A stretch of DNA of 33,775 nt from a virus (Duplodnaviria > Heunggongvirae > Uroviricota > Caudoviricetes): IMG/VR virus record IMGVR_UViG_2671180456_000007, positions 1 through 33,775 of that record, one strand, 5' to 3'. Shown here piece after piece: positions 22,822 through 31,849 of the stretch. The notes below the pieces were generated by a model. It did no database searches. It was not told where the DNA came from and worked only from the letters and a program-made list of their open reading frames with translations. The position numbers and the translations under genes were made by a program. Each line of letters starts with the position of its first letter. Positions within the stretch are counted from its first letter, which is position 1.

Positions 22822-22937
22822 TCTTTTAAAAGACACCACCAGAACAACTCCCTTCCGTTTCCACTTCCAAAAACTGCCACCAGTCGCTATCATCCGCTCA
22901 TCGTGATAAGTAAGTAACTACCTACCAGGTGAGCCAC

Positions 22938-25143: not shown

Positions 25144-26325
25144 ATGAGCCTTTATGTTATATCAACATTTAGGTTGGTCACAATATTGCCTGTTAAAAGT
25201 GGAATTATCGTGAGCGAGCTGAAAGAGCTAATTACCGAATTAGATTTTGAACAATGGTTGGATACTGAAGGTATCGTTTATCGACGTGGAGGCGTGAGTA
25301 CTCGCGGTCGTGAAGTGAATATCAAGGAGTGTCCGGTATGTGGCAGCTCCAACTGGAAGGTATATTTCAATCTGACCAGTGGCGTCGGTAAATGCTTCGC
25401 TGGTGATCATCCCGAAGAGATTCAGTTCAATAAGCTGGTCTTCCTCAAGCACTACAGCGGCAAATCACGACGACAGTTCGAGGAATATGTGCAGAACGCC
25501 CTTCTTTCCCAGGGGTGGGCACCAAAGAAAGAAGAGATAGTGCTTGCAAGCACAGTCGAGTTAGAGGGACCACTTGCACTCCCTCGTCATTACGAACTTC
25601 CTATAGATGGCCGTCTTCCAGACTATCTGGTTGAACGAAACATATCGCCTGAAATGGCAAAGTATTTTGACCTACGATACTGCGTCGAAGGCAAGCACGC
25701 TTATGTAGATCCGTATACAGATCAGGTTAAAGGACAGATATTCGATATGCGAATACTGATACCGGTTTACGATCTGGATGGGGTAATGAAGACATTTCAG
25801 GGGCGAGACATTACCGGTACAGCAGAACGCCGCTACCTCTTTCCTATGCAGCTTCCAGCTTCAGGTAAGTTTCTCTACAACGGCCATAATGCGGTCGGCA
25901 AACAGACTGTAGTTGTCTGTGAGGGGGCGTTCGATGTTATGGGAGTTAAACGAGCTATTTTTGATGAAGAAACATTACGTGATTACGTGGAACCGATAGG
26001 AACGTTCGGGATGCATCTATCTGGTAACACCACTCAGGATGCAGAAGATCAGTTGGGCGCGTTCCTGACGCTCAAGGCGCGTGGATTACGTAATGTGATC
26101 ATGATGTGGGATAGTGAAAAGCAAGCTATACGCAACACTATGGCCGCAGCCAGGCGACTGACCAGTATTGGTCTTAATGTCAAAGTAGCATGTTTGGGCG
26201 AGGAAGGACTCGACCCAGGCGATGCAACGCCAGAACAAATTATCAAAGCCTATTATCGGGCAAAACCGTATACCAAACAGTTGGAGTTGCAAAGCAAGGT
26301 TTTGGGCATTAAGGCGCTATCGTAA
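25144..26325 (+). CDS. DNA primase (T7 gp4-like zinc ribbon plus TOPRIM domain), encoded separately from the helicase
   Basis: Zinc-ribbon motif ECPVCGSSNWKVYFNLTSGVGKCFAGDH; TOPRIM-like acidic motifs (VVVCEGAFDVMGV, MMWDSEKQ). The start is uncertain: the ORF-finder start at 25072 lies inside the upstream hairpin; candidate starts are ATG 25144 or GTG 25210. Confidence 0.7.
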   Translation: MSLYVISTFRLVTILPVKSGIIVSELKELITELDFEQWLDTEGIVYRRGGVSTRGREVNIKECPVCGSSNWKVYFNLTSGVGKCFAGDHPEEIQFNKLVFLKHYSGKSRRQFEEYVQNALLSQGWAPKKEEIVLASTVELEGPLALPRHYELPIDGRLPDYLVERNISPEMAKYFDLRYCVEGKHAYVDPYTDQVKGQIFDMRILIPVYDLDGVMKTFQGRDITGTAERRYLFPMQLPASGKFLYNGHNAVGKQTVVVCEGAFDVMGVKRAIFDEETLRDYVEPIGTFGMHLSGNTTQDAEDQLGAFLTLKARGLRNVIMMWDSEKQAIRNTMAAARRLTSIGLNVKVACLGEEGLDPGDATPEQIIKAYYRAKPYTKQLELQSKVLGIKALS

Positions 26326-26400
26326 CAAGTGCCGCTAAAATAAGTAGATGATTACTTATCTTTCTGTAAGAATACTTTCATCTGTTAGCTAGGAGTTGGT

Positions 26401-27177
26401 ATGAAAGACGAAATTCAGAAATTAGCCTGCGACATCATTGATAAAACTGGTTTAGAAATCAGCGAGAGCAATCGACTAGACATCATTGAAAAAGCGGTAA
26501 AAACAGCAATGGATCATATCGCCACTCGTTTGGTTGAGATCCCGCTACCAGGGCTACCTTATCTGAAAGTTGAGTTACACGTATGGGGTGAACCTTCTTG
26601 TGCACGGCGTTCTGCATTAGTTGTTTTTATTAGCAAAGAAAACCCGCTCAGTCTTAAAGTGCAGGTTGGTGCATGGATGGATGGCAAAGTGATCTACACA
26701 AATACCGTTTTTTGTCTTTCAAACGACGAAACTATTGAAGCGGCCATTCAAGAAGCAGTTCTAGCAATGCGCAGCAGCGGTTTGATGAAGAATAACTACG
26801 AAGAGTACTTGCGTTCGATAAGTGGTGAAAAGACATTATCTCTGAAAGCAGATTTCGTTACCCCGAAAAACCTGTTGGAAGTCTTGCTTAATAAAGGGGC
26901 TAATGATGCCGTAAATGTAATCAGAGAGAGTGAGTATGCGTCTCTTTGCGACATGTGCAAAAGCCAGTTGGATCTGGTGCATATCGTTATTGATGCTGGG
27001 AAGGCATGTGATGGCGTAATGGCGGAATTTGCTTGGAAGGTGGTCAGGATTGCTAACGAATTACCGATGATAGAGCAAGAGGCCAAATCATACGCCACCA
27101 ATCATGTCACAGAGCTTCTTGTCCCCTATCGCTTAGAAAGCAATCAGCGCAAGATGGTTAGCTGGGGAAGTTGGTAA
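26401..27177 (+). CDS. Hypothetical protein (replication module, unknown function)
   Basis: 258-aa ORF with RBS GGAG upstream; no recognised motif. Confidence 0.6.
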   Translation: MKDEIQKLACDIIDKTGLEISESNRLDIIEKAVKTAMDHIATRLVEIPLPGLPYLKVELHVWGEPSCARRSALVVFISKENPLSLKVQVGAWMDGKVIYTNTVFCLSNDETIEAAIQEAVLAMRSSGLMKNNYEEYLRSISGEKTLSLKADFVTPKNLLEVLLNKGANDAVNVIRESEYASLCDMCKSQLDLVHIVIDAGKACDGVMAEFAWKVVRIANELPMIEQEAKSYATNHVTELLVPYRLESNQRKMVSWGSW

Positions 27178-27232
27178 TCTCTCCGCGCGTCGTTTTTTAC
27201 GCAAATAACGATAGGTAAGTACAAGATTATTT

Positions 27233-27715
27233 ATGGCGGTAGTTGTGAAAGCTGATTTGTCAAAAATCCCTTCTATTTCAGGAAATAACGGTTATTCACT
27301 TCGTTGTGAGGAAGTAAAGATAAACGGTGAGTCGGCATATTGCAGCTATTCCGTTTGCCAGCACACCATTCTTGCCTTCAAAGAAAACCGTCTTCCTCGA
27401 ACTTCTTTCCAGTCGTGCGCAACCGCTATTAAAGCAGGCAAATGCAAGGCGTTAAAAATGATGGTTGAAGAGATTCGTAAAGGAGAATCTCTGTATTTCG
27501 AAGATATGACCGCGCTCATTAAGGAGGTTGAAGAACGGAATAAACAAGCCAGAACTATAAAACGAAAACGTGACAGTGTAACGATTAATAGCATGGTTAA
27601 GAAGAGCACCACATCACAAACAGCGATCACTGACGTGTATGCGGCGTTGCTTGAAGAAACAACAAAAGAAACACATGAGCAAATCGATCAACATATGGAG
27701 GCAAAACAACAATGA
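27233..27715 (+). CDS. Hypothetical protein with N-terminal cysteine cluster (possible zinc-binding) and charged C-terminus
   Basis: 160 aa; cysteines in ...LRCEEVKINGESAYCSYSVCQH...QSCATAIKAGKCK...; ATGA-coupled to the ligase gene. Confidence 0.5.
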   Translation: MAVVVKADLSKIPSISGNNGYSLRCEEVKINGESAYCSYSVCQHTILAFKENRLPRTSFQSCATAIKAGKCKALKMMVEEIRKGESLYFEDMTALIKEVEERNKQARTIKRKRDSVTINSMVKKSTTSQTAITDVYAALLEETTKETHEQIDQHMEAKQQ

Positions 27716-29034
27716 AAAAGTTGATCGCACTTAAGCATAAGCTGGACGAAATGAAAGCTATGGGAACCAATGCAAAAAAAGAGGCATTGGCCAACATGGA
27801 TGACTTCGAGCAAAGCATGGTTTCATTGATGCTCAACCCTTTCATCCGTTTTGGGGTAAAGAAATACAAAGTGGCAGAGCCGCTTAGTGAGTCCGTCCCA
27901 AGTGACGAAAAAGCCATTGATATACTGAATAAGCTGGCCTCTCGCGAGCTGACGGGGAACGCAGCAATAGCAGCTGTTGAGTCTATCGTGGCGTCAATGT
28001 GCGCCGATGGGCAGGACGTGTTCCGTCGTTTCCTCTTAAAAGACCCGAAAGCAGGTGTTGGGATTAGCCTATGCAACAAGGTTTTTGAAAATCCCATTCC
28101 GAAATTCGAGGTGCAGCTGGCGTCACCGTATAAAGAAAAAGGCGACAAATACCCCTTCAAGCCAAATCCTAAAGCCAAATGGCCGATGATTGGCAGCCTT
28201 AAGCTCGATGGTTTGCGAGTAATTTGTGAGGTTATTGTTGACGAGGAAGAGGTTAACTTCCTTTCTCGTACTGGTAATCCAATCACGTCTCTCGATCACC
28301 TAAAGCCAGCAATGCTCGAATTAGGCAAACTTTCAGGCCACAAACACATCTTCTTCGATGGTGAAGGAACAGCCGGTTCATTTAACCAGTCCGTATCTGC
28401 ATTGCGCAAAAAGAACGTGCAGGCAATTGGCGCTATTTATCATGTTTTCGACTTCTTCCTACCGGAATGGCGGGCACAGGCTAAATCCAAAGAGTATGCA
28501 AAGACAGGTATGAAGCTGAAAGAGCGCCTGGCTATGCTGGTGGCGTTGTTTAAAAACGATCGCAGTGAAGGCTACGCACAAGACATTCACCTGCATCCGT
28601 TCTATATCATCCATAGCCACGAAGACTTCATCGAACGCTTCATGAAACGCCTGGACGATAACGAAGAAGGGGAGATGGGCAAAGATCCGAACTCTGTTTA
28701 CGAGTTTAAACGTACCCGCAGCTGGTGGAAGTTAAAAGACGAAGATTCAGAAGATGGTGAAATTATCGACTTTGAGCCTGGCGACCCGGACTCTGGTTTT
28801 GCCAACACGCTTGGAAAAATTGTTATTCGCCTTGAAAACGGTGTGATTGTTCGTGCGAGCGGCATTAAGCATAAATATCTGGACGAGATCTGGAACAACA
28901 AAGAGAAGTACCGTGGTCGTATTGTCGAGGTTCATTGTCACGAGAAAACGCCGGATGGCAGCTTACGCCACCCACGACTGAAATGGCCGCGTTGCTTACG
29001 CGATACCGAAGATCGAATCGGAGATAAAGAATGA
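27712..29034 (+). CDS. ATP-dependent DNA ligase with N-terminal extension
   Basis: 440 aa; adenylation motif I KLDGLR (SLKLDGLRVICEV); OB-fold-like C-terminal region ending ...RHPRLKWPRCLRDTED; RBS GGAGG. Confidence 0.85.
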   Translation: MKKLIALKHKLDEMKAMGTNAKKEALANMDDFEQSMVSLMLNPFIRFGVKKYKVAEPLSESVPSDEKAIDILNKLASRELTGNAAIAAVESIVASMCADGQDVFRRFLLKDPKAGVGISLCNKVFENPIPKFEVQLASPYKEKGDKYPFKPNPKAKWPMIGSLKLDGLRVICEVIVDEEEVNFLSRTGNPITSLDHLKPAMLELGKLSGHKHIFFDGEGTAGSFNQSVSALRKKNVQAIGAIYHVFDFFLPEWRAQAKSKEYAKTGMKLKERLAMLVALFKNDRSEGYAQDIHLHPFYIIHSHEDFIERFMKRLDDNEEGEMGKDPNSVYEFKRTRSWWKLKDEDSEDGEIIDFEPGDPDSGFANTLGKIVIRLENGVIVRASGIKHKYLDEIWNNKEKYRGRIVEVHCHEKTPDGSLRHPRLKWPRCLRDTEDRIGDKE

Positions 29035-29210
29035 TGATCGGCTGGATGATTGCATTTTTAGCAGTTGGTTTTTTCATCGGTATTGTGGTGATGTCCAGTT
29101 GCATTAATGACTACATTAAAAACGGTGTTATAGAAAGACGAGGTCGCATTTATCGCATTGTAGAAATAACCAACACCGTGAAGGAGATTAAGGATGATCG
29201 TATTAAGTAA
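29031..29210 (+). CDS. Small single-pass membrane protein (59 aa; below the ORF-track size cutoff), paralogue 1
   Basis: ATG overlaps the ligase stop (ATGA); MMIGWMIAFLAVGFFIGIVVMSS... has a TM helix then the basic tail RRGRIYRIVEITNTVKE. Confidence 0.4.
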   Translation: MMIGWMIAFLAVGFFIGIVVMSSCINDYIKNGVIERRGRIYRIVEITNTVKEIKDDRIK

Positions 29211-29409
29211 AAGGGAGAAAGAAACGCTTCATGAAATCAGTAAGTGGCCGGAGTTCCCTGAGTACTGGAAGCCTAAAACGCGAGCTAAGTTAGAGCGTTT
29301 AGGGTTGGTTGCAAACGTTTCTGAAACGTGGTGCTCGGCCAACTACCAGTTAACTGATAAAGGGAAAGTATTGCTACAGCAATTAGTAGAATCAGGAGTG
29401 TTAAAATGA
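29194..29409 (+). CDS. Hypothetical small protein (71 aa)
   Basis: RBS AAGGAG 9 nt upstream; overlaps both neighbouring small genes. Confidence 0.5.
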   Translation: MIVLSKREKETLHEISKWPEFPEYWKPKTRAKLERLGLVANVSETWCSANYQLTDKGKVLLQQLVESGVLK

Positions 29410-29558
29410 TTCCATACATCTCGTTAGCTTTTATGGGTGGCTTCCTTATCGGCTTCGGCATCTGTCGTGATTTAATTAAGCAGGAACTTAAAACCAAAAC
29501 ACTGTGCATCGGAAAGCGTGTGTATCGGGTAGTTCATGAAACAAAGGTGAAAAAATGA
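29406..29558 (+). CDS. Small single-pass membrane protein (50 aa), paralogue 2
   Basis: MIPYISLAFMGGFLIGFGICRD... TM helix then GKRVYRVVHETKVKK, similar in layout and C-terminal motif to the 29031 gene; ATGA-coupled to the next gene. Confidence 0.4.
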   Translation: MIPYISLAFMGGFLIGFGICRDLIKQELKTKTLCIGKRVYRVVHETKVKK

Positions 29559-29845
29559 GCAATTTAACTTCTTGGGAATGGTGGTTGGCCACCTATTTCT
29601 TAGCGGCCGGAGTAGCATTCGCCTTTTACGTAGGTCAGTTAGTCGTAAAACTGTTGCTGATTAAATTTGCTAGTCATAAACGTATCGATGATGGTCTGTG
29701 GCGTCTTGGCACCCTGGTGGAAACTCGCTACGGGCAACTTAAGGAGAACGAAACCATTACTATCCAAGCGAAACGATTCACTGCCACCATTACAAGAACA
29801 CCTAGTCGTAGAGTGGCCTTGATCAAAAAAGTCACAACCGAATAA
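29555..29845 (+). CDS. Small membrane protein (96 aa) with N-terminal TM helix
   Basis: MSNLTSWEWWLATYFLAAGVAFAFYVGQLVV... hydrophobic helix; last gene of the translationally coupled run. Confidence 0.55.
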   Translation: MSNLTSWEWWLATYFLAAGVAFAFYVGQLVVKLLLIKFASHKRIDDGLWRLGTLVETRYGQLKENETITIQAKRFTATITRTPSRRVALIKKVTTE

Positions 29846-29862
29846 AAACATATCGATAAGTA

Positions 29863-29884
29863 TTTACTTACTTATCTTTTGTGT
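29863..29884 (+). other. AT-rich hairpin GATAAGTA-N6-TACTTATC followed by TTTTG; possible terminator or regulatory palindrome of the TAAGTA family
   Basis: 8-bp inverted repeat 18 nt after the stop of the 29555 gene. Confidence 0.35.
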
Positions 29885-30236
29885 ATAAGATGACTTTGTT
29901 TTCGTTGAGACGCGACTGTTTGAACTTAAATACAAGTGCAAACGAAGAAGTCTATCTGGCAGTAGCCTAATAAGCCAAACACCAGCGAGGTCAGTTTCCA
30001 GCCTCGTTACCGAAATGGGACACACTGAGCGAGTGTGATTGCAGAACGCAGGAGGGAACATGAATGTTCCCTCCGATGAAGTAACAGAATGGGCCGGTTG
30101 GTATATTTTCAACTCCATATGACTCCCGGATTCTTAGCCACTGACCGCCCATCCTGTTACGTCATTTTGTTCAATTATGTCGTTTATACTGGGTTAAAAA
30201 GCGGCGACGTAGCCCGGCTGGTATGGTTAGCCAGTA

Positions 30237-30358
30237 CACAACGTTGAGGCCATTACATTTTTATCAATTCTAAGGTTCTATTCACAGAGATACCGGCGAG
30301 CGTTGATATGTAACATGTTGGGCAAACATTCAATCGGAGTAGTGGCCTCAACGTTGTG
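30237..30358 (+). repeat. Long hairpin element A (about 20-bp terminal stem CACAACGTTGAGGCCATTAC / GTAGTGGCCTCAACGTTGTG, about 80-nt interior)
   Basis: The two arms are exact reverse complements apart from one position; termini match those of elements B, C and D. Confidence 0.5.
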
Positions 30359-30624
30359 AAGACAGGATTGTTGTGTAGGTTTAACCACTGTTGCCATTGG
30401 TGCCTGTTTTCACAACAAATGATTCCATACATCACATTGTATAAATTACAAAGTAGGTGCTGTCCTCAGAAACATCATCTACTTAAAGATTTTGCCTTCT
30501 ACTATTGAGCGAAGTCGAAAGCGTCTGGCACTAACGAAAAGTGCAAGTAGCGGTGCGTTTCCTGGCAGAAACTAAACCGTCGCGATTGGCACTGTTGAGT
30601 AATAAATACTGGCAGTGCTGAATT

Positions 30625-30699
30625 GATGGTGTAGCTCAGCGGTAGAGCAGTTGGCTGTTAACCAACTGGTCGGTGGTTCGAATCCACCCACCATCGCCA
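30625..30699 (+). tRNA. tRNA-Asn (anticodon GTT)
   Basis: Manual fold: acceptor GATGGTG/CACCATC, D-stem GCTC/GAGC, anticodon stem GTTGG/CCAAC with loop CTGTTAA, T-arm GGTGG-TTCGAAT-CCACC, discriminator G plus encoded CCA. Confidence 0.8.
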
Positions 30700-30704
30700 A
30701 TTTA

Positions 30705-30791
30705 GGGGAGTTAGTCCGTAGGGGCAGCGGGGTAGACTGTAAATCTACTGTCATTGCGACTCGGGTGGTTCGACTCCATCACTCCCCACCA
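30705..30791 (+). tRNA. tRNA-Tyr (anticodon GTA), class II with long variable arm
   Basis: Acceptor GGGGAGT/ACTCCCC, anticodon stem GTAGA/TCTAC with loop CTGTAAA, variable stem-loop, T-arm GGTGG-TTCGACT-CCATC, encoded CCA; the D-arm region is non-canonical (4-nt linker). Confidence 0.7.
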
Positions 30792-30795
30792 AATT

Positions 30796-30871
30796 GCCGG
30801 TTTAGCTCAGTTGGTAGAGCGTCTGCCTTGTAAGCAGGATGTCAGCGGTTCGATCCCGTTAACCGGCACCA
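30796..30871 (+). tRNA. tRNA-Thr (anticodon TGT)
   Basis: Acceptor GCCGGTT/AACCGGC, D-arm GCTC-AGTTGGTA-GAGC, anticodon stem TCTGC/GCAGG with loop CTTGTAA, T-arm AGCGG-TTCGATC-CCGTT, encoded CCA. Confidence 0.8.
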
Positions 30872-30872
30872 A

Positions 30873-30962
30873 CACAACAGGTAAGAGCATTGGGCGAATC
30901 GGCGATACTGACCCACAAGCCCGTAAATCGATAGAGTCAGACCAGTGCTCTTACCGTTGTGA
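30873..30962 (+). repeat. Long hairpin element B (terminal stem CACAACAGGTAAGAGCATTGG / CCAGTGCTCTTACCGTTGTG), directly abutting the tRNA-Thr 3' end
   Basis: About 20-bp inverted repeat with compensatory changes relative to elements A, C and D; begins 2 nt after the tRNA-Thr CCA. Confidence 0.5.
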
Positions 30963-31013
30963 GGAAGTGCAGCTCTTTGAAGCAACCAGAAGATAAGCAT
31001 CTGGCTTCACAAC

Positions 31014-31092
31014 ACAACGATAAGATCATTACGGTTAATCGTCGTTCATGTGCACAATGACTGGTCGAAAGGTAGTGATCTTACCGTTGTGA
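31014..31092 (+). repeat. Long hairpin element C (terminal stem CACAACGATAAGATCATTAC / GTAGTGATCTTACCGTTGTG)
   Basis: Inverted repeat with the same CACAACG ... CGTTGTG termini as elements A and B. Confidence 0.5.
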
Positions 31093-31191
31093 TGAATGCA
31101 CAGGCTGATGTGCCGCAACTACAGTAGTGCGCGCTTTGCGGGGGTTGCTACAACCCTGTGTCGGAGTTCAGCACCGACCATCACAATAGCT

Positions 31192-31278
31192 GGAGAGTAG
31201 GGAGCATGGTGCTCAAGCGGTCTTGAAAACCGTCCCATTGCGCAAGCGATGATGGTTCGATTCCATTACTCTCCGCCA
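31192..31278 (+). tRNA. tRNA-Ser (anticodon TGA), class II with long variable arm
   Basis: Acceptor GGAGAGT/ACTCTCC, D-stem GAGC/GCTC, anticodon stem GCGGT/ACCGT with loop CTTGAAA, variable arm ATTGC-GCAA-GCGAT, T-arm GATGG-TTCGATT-CCATT, discriminator G plus CCA. Confidence 0.8.
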
Positions 31279-31280
31279 GA

Positions 31281-31358
31281 CACAGCGTTGAGCGGTTTGG
31301 CCTTTTAATCACCCAGATTAAGACTCCGCTAACATAAACCAGACCGCTCAACGCTGTG
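31281..31358 (+). repeat. Long hairpin element D (terminal stem CACAGCGTTGAGCGGTTTGG / CCAGACCGCTCAACGCTGTG), directly abutting the tRNA-Ser 3' end
   Basis: 20-bp inverted repeat with one mismatch; termini CACAGCG ... CGCTGTG are a covarying variant of the A-C termini. Confidence 0.5.
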
Positions 31359-31432
31359 ATAGACAATTACGGCAGACGTTCTTAACCATAGCTTGCTAAC
31401 ATCCTAGCAACACTTTTTTCAGCGCAAAATTC

Positions 31433-31456
31433 AAAGGGGCTTCGGCCCCTTTTTTG
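31433..31456 (+). terminator. Rho-independent terminator closing the tRNA cluster (stem AAAGGGGC/GCCCCTTT, loop TTCG, T6 tract)
   Basis: AAAGGGGCTTCGGCCCCTTTTTTG; a second weaker hairpin with a T tract lies at 31393-31419 (TTGCTA-ACATCC-TAGCAA-CAC-TTTTTT). Confidence 0.75.
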
Positions 31457-31498
31457 CAACTGAAAGAGTCAAGTCTACGAACTTTGTAGGAAGAAATA

Positions 31499-31849
31499 AT
31501 GACCAGCAAAGATAACACACCACTAAAAGTCACCCCTGAACACATTGAACAACTCATTCAAAGTGAACATTATTTCACTGCATATGATGCCAGCCACGGG
31601 GATAACTTCATCTCTGTTTACAATTCAAAAACAGATATCGACAAAGGTCATGAGTCGTTAAAACTCTTAACGTTCTGCGTTATGGTTCTCAAAAATGGAT
31701 ATACCGTAACGGGAAAATCTGCGTGCGTAAGACCAGAAATCTTCAACTTTGATGTTGGTCGCGAGTACGCTCGAAAAGATGCTATCGATCAAATCTGGCC
31801 CCTGGAAGGCTATCTCCTGAAGCAAAAGTGGCATGAGGCAAAGCAATGA
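31499..31849 (+). CDS. Gp49-like conserved phage protein (function unknown)
   Basis: 116 aa; the motif ...GYTVTGKSACVRPEIFNFDVGREYARKDAIDQIWPLEGYLLKQK matches, from memory, a widespread family of small phage proteins (GxSACVxPxNFDxxxGRxxA...LEGYLL); RBS AGGAAG. Confidence 0.6.
   Translation: MTSKDNTPLKVTPEHIEQLIQSEHYFTAYDASHGDNFISVYNSKTDIDKGHESLKLLTFCVMVLKNGYTVTGKSACVRPEIFNFDVGREYARKDAIDQIWPLEGYLLKQKWHEAKQ

Follow-up and report, generated by a model that had tools for sequence, protein, structure and literature searches.

Type I toxin peptides such as Hok, TisB and Ldr consist of 30-60 amino acids, in which a single hydrophobic helix is joined to a short polar tail, and they are encoded at stand-alone loci under antisense-RNA control. 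T4 Imm, T4 Sp and HK97 gp15 are known small membrane effectors of phages. P22 SieA is a phage superinfection-exclusion membrane protein (PMC10883804), and DicB, a small protein of a cryptic prophage, inhibits inner-membrane receptor proteins (PMC6832061). In Bacillus phage phi29, the membrane proteins p16.7 and p1 have been proposed to anchor phage DNA replication; both are small and membrane-anchored, with a soluble part that interacts with DNA, the terminal protein or both (PMC4974454). Here we analyse four small genes found immediately 3' of a DNA ligase gene in a stretch of viral DNA of 33,775 nucleotides (IMG/VR record IMGVR_UViG_2671180456_000007; hereafter the window). We called these genes, all on the + strand, A, B, C and D (Table 1). 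The products of A, C and D are predicted membrane proteins.

An N-terminal transmembrane helix followed by a cytoplasmic C-terminal part, as in phi29 p16.7, is predicted here for A, C and D. The layout of D is comparable to that of p16.7 and p1, as its N-terminal helix continues as a long helix before a basic C-terminal part. However, phi29 has a Gram-positive host and protein-primed replication, there is no sequence similarity between the two sets of proteins, and DNA binding by the tails is only putative in our case. Like the superinfection-exclusion proteins T4 Imm and Sp, HK97 gp15 and P22 SieA, the predicted A, C and D proteins are small, accessory phage proteins of the inner membrane. 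In contrast, they have no homology with those proteins, they are predicted to be nearly devoid of a periplasmic part, and their genes sit in a replication block. Unlike those of type I toxins, the genes are coupled in a long operon, and the tails of their products harbour strongly conserved motifs. As for holins, the endolysin or spanin genes of lysis cassettes are absent from the neighbourhood, which consists of the ligase gene, small genes, a structured RNA and tRNA genes.

Conservation of the four genes in SSU5-type phage-plasmids

The region that contains the four genes is 97% identical to the records of Escherichia phage Cyrano and of the E. coli 'phage CMS-2020a', and 69-74% identical to Salmonella phage SSU5 and Klebsiella phage-plasmids. 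It also has matches in 757 plasmids of PLSDB, from Klebsiella, Escherichia, Enterobacter, Salmonella (pHCM2), Yersinia pestis (pMT1), Citrobacter and others. The match to Cyrano, the likeness to SSU5 and the large number of plasmids indicate that the window is part of an SSU5-type phage-plasmid. Such elements are widespread and carry resistance genes; they include pHCM2 of S. Typhi, a part of pMT1 of Y. pestis and numerous plasmids of E. coli, Klebsiella and Enterobacter.

The frames of A-D were read in the corresponding region of 13 relatives. All four are open in 11-13 of them (SSU5-, pHCM2-, pMT1-, Enterobacter-, Klebsiella- and Anatum-type copies), with amino-acid identities of 58-79%. Where the DNA has been kept, the frames are uninterrupted except for two obvious rearrangements, both in C: an insertion in pKPN1409_2 and, in a Senftenberg plasmid, a transposon-type insertion behind residue 41. 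Ratios of non-synonymous to synonymous substitution rates (dN/dS), determined by the Nei-Gojobori method, are 0.12-0.19 for A, 0.07-0.10 for D and 0.14-0.20 for C, the latter reaching 0.47 in the comparison with the Anatum plasmid. For B, dN is 0.23-0.39 and dS is saturated. The tail motifs of A and C are invariant while their third codon positions vary, and insertions and deletions are in frame (one 3-residue repeat in P0016). Among 87 further distinct IMG/VR loci, 39 have full-length, stop-free matches to the C-terminus of the ligase and to A, B, C and D, and the most persistent pair is that of C and D. The open frames in the relatives together with the low dN/dS values indicate that A-D are protein-coding genes under purifying selection. 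The small open reading frames proposed in the initial annotation of the window are thus present at the coordinates it gave and conserved in related genomes. The basic motifs that it had quoted for the products of 59 and 50 residues, RRGRIYRIVEITNTVKE and GKRVYRVVHETKVKK, are present in the window.

Judging from database records, A-D are not overlooked genes. They are annotated as SSU5_045-048 and pJN226_0094-0097, and as genes of hypothetical proteins in pMT1 and pHCM2; the annotation of Cyrano omits A. All four families are also found in PHROGs, with matches that cover the whole protein and the whole profile, and all four are function-unassigned there. A, C and D had no significant match in Pfam or NCBIfam and no match at all with the known defence systems of PADLOC, while the matches of B in these databases were sub-threshold and to winged-helix domains only. 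Homologue searches with A, B and C yielded matches in SSU5-like elements only.

Organization of the gene run

In Cyrano, the gene order is helicase, primase, two hypothetical genes, DNA ligase, small genes and tRNAs. The ligase gene is the last enzyme gene of a helicase-primase-ligase replication block, and four tRNA genes are present in the window at 30625-31278. Six genes, from a 160-residue hypothetical protein gene through the ligase gene to D, form one chain of overlapping stops and starts. The first link of this chain is an ATGA overlap between the stop of the 160-residue protein gene and the start of the ligase gene. The initial annotation described the small genes as having ATGA-type overlaps. 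They are found at the ligase/A, B/C and C/D junctions, but A and B overlap by 17 nucleotides. Conserved Shine-Dalgarno sequences are located 5-10 nucleotides 5' of each start (GGAG in A, AGGAG in both B and C, AGGTG in D). The proposal that the genes are translationally coupled is supported by these sequences, the overlaps and the low dN/dS values. The order of the genes and the stop/start overlaps behind the ligase gene are the same in SSU5, pJN2-26, the Anatum plasmid and pHCM2. Since the first codon of A is CTG in SSU5, pHCM2 and pMT1, the conserved start of this gene is probably its second ATG, at 29034.

Using a consensus scan, which is crude and could miss weak promoters, we detected no sigma-70-like promoter in the interval 26000-31500 of the + strand, and no promoter-like site on either strand within 29031-29845. 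The only promoter-like site of the 26000-31500 interval precedes the gene run and is on the - strand (27582-27554). As the genes start inside or against the preceding stops and no internal promoter was found, A-D are probably made together with the ligase. They would thus be co-expressed with the replication genes rather than form a stand-alone toxin or lysogenic-conversion cassette.

Table 1. Features of the window in and around the gene run
Feature	Coordinates	Strand	Size	Evidence or remarks
Hypothetical protein gene	27233-27715	+	160 residues	Open reading frame list; hypothetical protein in Cyrano, SSU5 and pJN2-26
ATP-dependent DNA ligase gene	27712-29034	+	440 residues	Pfam DNA_ligase_A_M, E 8.8e-13; phrog_114, E 5.6e-126; annotated as DNA ligase in relatives
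Gene A	29031-29210	+	59 residues (58 from the ATG at 29034)	phrog_4381, E 2.4e-38
Gene B	29194-29409	+	71 residues	phrog_4054, E 1.7e-45
Gene C	29406-29558	+	50 residues	phrog_6302, E 1.4e-36
Gene D	29555-29845	+	96 residues	phrog_4507, E 1.8e-58
Palindrome TAAGTA-N6-TACTTA, TAAGTATTTACTTACTTA(T)	29857-29875; 22906-22924	+; -		2 copies vs 0 expected
Structured RNA	29897-30275	+	~380 nucleotides	Covariation

Three predicted membrane proteins and a soluble protein

The maximal Kyte-Doolittle means over 19 residues are 2.55 for A, 1.84 for C and 2.00 for D, in agreement with the N-terminal transmembrane helix initially described for the 59- and 50-residue products. The single helix of A, C and D is preceded by 1-17 uncharged residues. 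No lysine or arginine residues are found before the hydrophobic stretch in any of the three proteins, while 9, 10 and 13 such residues follow it in A, C and D, respectively. The tails have net charges of +3 in A, +7 in C and +7 in D, and the isoelectric points of the whole proteins are 9.4, 9.9 and 10.2. According to the positive-inside rule, the basic segment of a membrane protein faces the cytoplasm. The distribution of basic residues thus predicts that A, C and D are bitopic inner-membrane proteins, with a periplasmic N-terminus and a basic, cytoplasmic C-terminal tail. The tail of A contains the motif RRGRIYRIV and that of C the invariant motif GKRVYRVVHE.

In D, the N-terminal helix is followed by a basic C-terminal region of ~60 residues. 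The AlphaFold2 model of this protein has a mean predicted local distance difference test (pLDDT) score of 66. It is confident only for a long helix that begins with the membrane segment (pLDDT of 93 for the N-terminal helix), and the scores of the last 35 residues are below 50. Profile searches against PDB sequences yielded no usable solved relative of D. D also matches the holin family phrog_2359 weakly (E 0.027), over residues 8-34 only, which correspond to the membrane helix.

Hundreds of GenBank and RefSeq records label D as a 'C-type natriuretic protein'. The C-type natriuretic peptide has two cysteines that form a 17-residue disulphide ring. No natriuretic-peptide family was found among the Pfam matches of D with E values up to 1, and D of the window contains no cysteine with which to form such a ring. 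We therefore rejected this name, which looks like a propagated annotation error.

The initial annotation viewed the whole run as one of single-pass membrane proteins, which agrees with the features of A, C and D but not with those of B. The maximal Kyte-Doolittle mean of B is only 0.33. As B has no hydrophobic segment, the run encodes three membrane proteins and one soluble protein. The structural model of B displays a MarR-like, winged helix-turn-helix fold, and B is thus predicted to be a small, soluble protein of a DNA-binding type. Its best sequence matches are to HTH_45 in Pfam (12.3 bits for a cut-off of 25.5; E 0.18) and to SSO5209_fam in NCBIfam (15.2 bits for a cut-off of 140). All the sub-threshold sequence matches of B are to winged-helix domains, including weak ones in PADLOC (E 0.0015-0.027) to Csa3 and CARF proteins, at the winged-helix end of these. 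No winged-helix model of Pfam or NCBIfam scores above its curated cut-off, and a profile search against PDB sequences gave no usable solved relative. The predicted winged-helix fold is common to B and to MarR-type domains. However, B is about half as long (71 residues, compared with ~140 in the matched chains), it is devoid of the N- and C-terminal dimerization helices, and the identities are 13-24%.

Paralogy of A and C

The initial annotation also suggested that the products of A and C are paralogues, and the comparison of their profiles argues strongly for this. Profile-profile alignment with hhalign (15 A and 16 C sequences) gave a probability of 91% and a P value of 1.1e-6. Residues 2-51 of A align with residues 1-50 of C without gaps, in 50 collinear columns. 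For the null distribution, the columns of C were shuffled 200 times, separately within the helix block and the tail block. The A-C score of 32.5 was reached by none of the 200 shuffles, whose mean was 11.5, with a standard deviation of 2.8 and a maximum of 23.5. The tails alone scored 18.0, compared with a null maximum of 17.1. They share the motif G-[KR]-R-[IV]-Y-R-[IV]-V, which is located at a fixed distance from the helix and is invariant within each family. PHROGs separates A and C into two families, which the profile comparison joins. The alignments thus indicate that A is a diverged duplicate of C. We also considered D as a third paralogue, on account of its segment DDGLWRLGSLLE, and rejected this possibility because the profile comparisons with A and C gave probabilities of only 0.3% and 1.3%.

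Core and optional genes

An exhaustive search with D added three representatives, with identities of 34-37%. Two of them led to IMG/VR contigs of ~110 kb that belong to a distant SSU5-like clade (L015 and L016). In this clade, the ligase gene is followed, with overlapping stop and start, by a single gene coding for a C-like protein of 56 residues and then by a D-like gene; no B gene was found there. The 56-residue protein has 42-54% identity with C, with a z score of 16 in block shuffles, compared with a weak z score of 6 for A. By these scores it is clearly an orthologue of C. The presence of only ligase, C-like and D-like genes in the distant clade indicates that C and D form the core of the module, that the association of the ligase gene with C and D is the old arrangement, and that A arose later, as a copy of C that diverges faster.

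A and B have been added to this core and are lost in natural lineages. Among the 187 close E. coli-type plasmids of PLSDB with B, A is present in 98. In pEC16-2, exactly 163 bp are gone (29031-29193 of the window; 1511-1561 of locus L005). This deletion removes A and puts the ATG of B in its place, in an ATGA overlap with the ligase stop. The start regions of A and B share short direct repeats, ATGAT and GATGATCG, offset by 3 nucleotides. In some Klebsiella plasmids, the N-terminus of the ligase is fused in frame to the end of B, and C and D are intact; in one of them, pKP35_2 (locus L009, 1603-1851), ~70 residues of the ligase are joined to the last ~12 residues of B. In P0092, the N-terminus of the ligase is fused to the C-terminal half of D. 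The block thus seems prone to deletions that preserve translational coupling downstream. Other Klebsiella plasmids have kept A and B, with C interrupted and D replaced. In pMT1 (NZ_CP006790.1, 74011-77910; locus L004), the ligase gene is cut by IS100 and no ligase is annotated. A-D are intact there, between IS100 (IstB) and caf1R of the F1 capsule operon.

Possible functions of the module

Several functions can be envisaged for these proteins. Those suggested in the initial annotation (superinfection exclusion, toxicity or host takeover) are generic. The one that we place first, tentatively, is that the tails of A, C and D tether replicating DNA or its enzymes at the inner membrane, in a manner similar to phi29 p16.7 and p1. 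This ranking is based on the linkage with the ligase gene across distant clades, the basic tails, the DNA-binding type of B and the phi29 precedent. A-D are accessory genes that close the replication block on its 3' side. They are probably co-translated, at the time when the replication genes are active, and A, C and D would work on the cytoplasmic side of the inner membrane. There, the basic tails of C and D, and also that of A, would hold the replicating phage-plasmid DNA, or its enzymes, with B as an optional DNA-binding partner. The module would be helpful but not essential. A more specific version, which we regard as more doubtful, is that C and D, with A and B, localize replication or nick-sealing at the membrane. 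They would then be a Gram-negative counterpart of p16.7 and p1 made of unrelated proteins, in which the G-[KR]-R-[IV]-Y-R-[IV]-V strand might serve as a docking motif.

A number of observations weigh against tethering. C and D are intact in pKP35_2, where the ligase gene is deleted, and in pMT1, where it is split by IS100, which argues that their role is independent of the ligase itself. For each of the four genes, there are natural plasmids that lack it. Searches of Pfam, PHROGs and NCBIfam and the PDB profile search revealed no similarity of A-D to phi29 p16.7 or to any characterized protein, and the C-terminal domain of D is not modelled with confidence (pLDDT <50). No peptides of the pMT1 copies of A-D are reported in the available part of the supplement of a Y. 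pestis small-protein proteomics study. Finally, gene position is weak evidence in phages, as the ends of operons collect unrelated small genes.

Nearly as likely as tethering is an action on the host. A, C and D might block or alter a host membrane protein, in the bilayer or on its cytoplasmic side, and thereby cause exclusion or takeover. Possible targets include the transporter for DNA entry of competing phages, a component of cell division or of the envelope stress response, or a membrane protease. Small phage membrane proteins are most commonly known for effects of this kind. The accessory nature of A-D, which are often lost or replaced, and their narrow families, confined to SSU5-like elements, are consistent with a host-directed function, and the duplication followed by divergence that would have generated A from C is typical of arms-race genes. 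However, with only 1-17 residues predicted in the periplasm, exclusion acting from the periplasmic side, as with T4 Sp, is unlikely. No promoter belonging to A-D themselves was found, and the expression from the resting plasmid that exclusion by a lysogen would call for is not indicated. The dN/dS values of 0.07-0.19 and the invariant motifs reflect purifying rather than diversifying selection, and none of the known families of exclusion or defence proteins was matched.

A function in toxicity or lysis timing and one as a regulatory unit are both less likely than either tethering or a host-directed action. It is improbable that A, C and D are membrane-damaging peptides, i.e. toxins or holin/antiholin-like proteins that time lysis, which would depolarize or permeabilize the inner membrane late in infection. 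Their size and architecture, an N-terminal helix with a short charged tail, do resemble those of Hok, TisB and small holins, and D has the weak match to phrog_2359. However, this match is far below significance and involves hydrophobic residues only. Moreover, the genes adjoin those of the ligase and the RNA rather than an endolysin gene and do not form a stand-alone locus, the sole promoter-like site is on the - strand upstream of the run, and the genes are stably carried on plasmids in hundreds of isolates.

We consider it similarly improbable that the run is a regulatory unit, in which B would regulate, for instance, the palindrome TAAGTA-N6-TACTTA, and the membrane proteins would sequester or modulate B. 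The MarR-like winged-helix model of B would fit such a role, and so would the two occurrences of the palindrome in the window, after D and in a divergent intergenic region. Nevertheless, the palindrome is retained in the distant clade, along with the C-like and D-like genes but without B, and B is absent from the Klebsiella plasmids that retain only C and D.

Lastly, it is very unlikely that A and/or C are untranslated and owe their conservation to constraints at the DNA or RNA level: A missing from the Cyrano annotation and the lack of pMT1-encoded peptides in the available part of the Y. pestis supplement would agree with this, but it is contradicted by the dN/dS values of 0.12-0.20 in the frames of A and C, the invariance of their motifs while third positions vary, the conserved Shine-Dalgarno sequences of both genes, the in-frame insertions and deletions, and the protein architecture retained by the C orthologue of the distant clade at 42-54% identity.

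By itself, the result on A-D is modest, as it deals with conserved hypothetical genes already annotated elsewhere. Its value is that A-D are known to be real genes, with C and D as the core and A and B as optional members, and that three of the products are predicted at the cytoplasmic face of the membrane. A-D represent a defined and easily deletable target to ask how such elements organize replication or compete with other phages.

Palindrome and structured RNA downstream of D

One copy of the palindrome, which marks where the gene run ends, is located 12 nucleotides 3' of the stop of D. A T-run comes after it, and it can form a hairpin of -8.5 kcal/mol. It also precedes by ~10 nucleotides a -10-like box, TATAAGAT, just upstream of the structured RNA. 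The other copy precedes the replication genes, in a divergent intergenic region. In the distant clade, the two arms change together, from AU to GC pairs (TAGGTA...TACCTA). The palindrome is more likely to be an operator or promoter element for the downstream RNA, but it could be a terminator-like hairpin. That B binds to it is only a guess.

The ~400 bp after D (29856-30252) contain no conserved open reading frame, and the DNA is 78-81% conserved, more than the adjoining genes. In the distant clade, the region has 71-73% identity and is found at a different location. RNAalifold analysis of 21 distinct sequences predicted 104 pairs. In these, 95.3% of the cells are paired, compared with 36-45% when the partners are slid by 1-3 columns. 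Compensatory double changes were found in 25 pairs, compared with 2-8 in the slid controls, and none of 500 shuffles reached the observed values. Both the conserved G-U pairs and the folding energy, which is lower for the + strand, favour this strand for the RNA.

Within this RNA, positions 29935-29970 contain a start-less frame with the invariant sequence GCA AAC GA...CTG GCA GTA GCC TAA TAA, which reads ANEEVYLAVA followed by two stops. In E. coli, the tag of the transfer-messenger RNA (tmRNA) has the sequence ANDENYALAA and precedes UAAUAA. In the tag-like frame, variation across 136 sequences is confined to residues 3-5 (ANDNQYLAVA, ANEEMYLAVA, ANEDTYLAVA and others), with the exception of one ANENQYLAVAL. 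The TAT/TAC and GCC/GCG changes in this frame are synonymous, and the frame 5' of the first GCA is broken by indels of 0, 1 or 2 nucleotides. The RNA after D thus shows the pattern of a tmRNA tag and may represent a new class of tmRNA-like RNAs. This neighbouring RNA is more consequential than the result on A-D.

With default settings, ARAGORN detected no tmRNA in the window or in 135 loci. Rfam gave matches of 14-17 bits to two permuted-tmRNA models over the tag region, and no tRNA-like domain was found in the RNA with either ARAGORN (default) or Rfam. With lowered thresholds, ARAGORN proposed a permuted tmRNA whose acceptor piece would be inside D. This candidate was rejected because the RNA is not adjacent to D in the distant clade. 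In published surveys, ssrA genes of phages were found in mycobacteriophages, Bacillus phage G and DS6A only, and the phages listed there do not include SSU5-like elements (PMC4131195). We also considered the Y. pestis small RNAs sR082 and sR083, and discarded them because they are located elsewhere on pMT1. On this plasmid, the conserved RNA region extends toward caf1R.

The same tag, mostly as ANEEMYLAVA, and the hairpin that follows it, but no other part of the RNA, are also found in a second group, of ~28 IMG/VR phage contigs of 46-49 kb, in a different, shorter conserved scaffold followed by tRNA genes (L031, L034, L039, L041, L042, L047, L072, L077, L080, L089, L096, L099, L101, L102, L114, L124 and others). 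The occurrence of the tag and hairpin in contigs of another size class indicates that the tag module is common to at least two phage types.

Between the RNA and the tRNA genes, the window also contains hairpin cassettes, formed by 30247-30266 with 30340-30360 and by 30357-30369 with 30407-30419. Their arms are conserved (CACAACG...arm / arm...CGTTGTG) and their interiors are variable. These cassettes may be RNA-processing signals. In the 46-49-kb group, a similar cassette (CACAACAGGTAAGAGCATT ... AGTGCTCTTTCCGTTGTG) is repeated before the tRNA genes.

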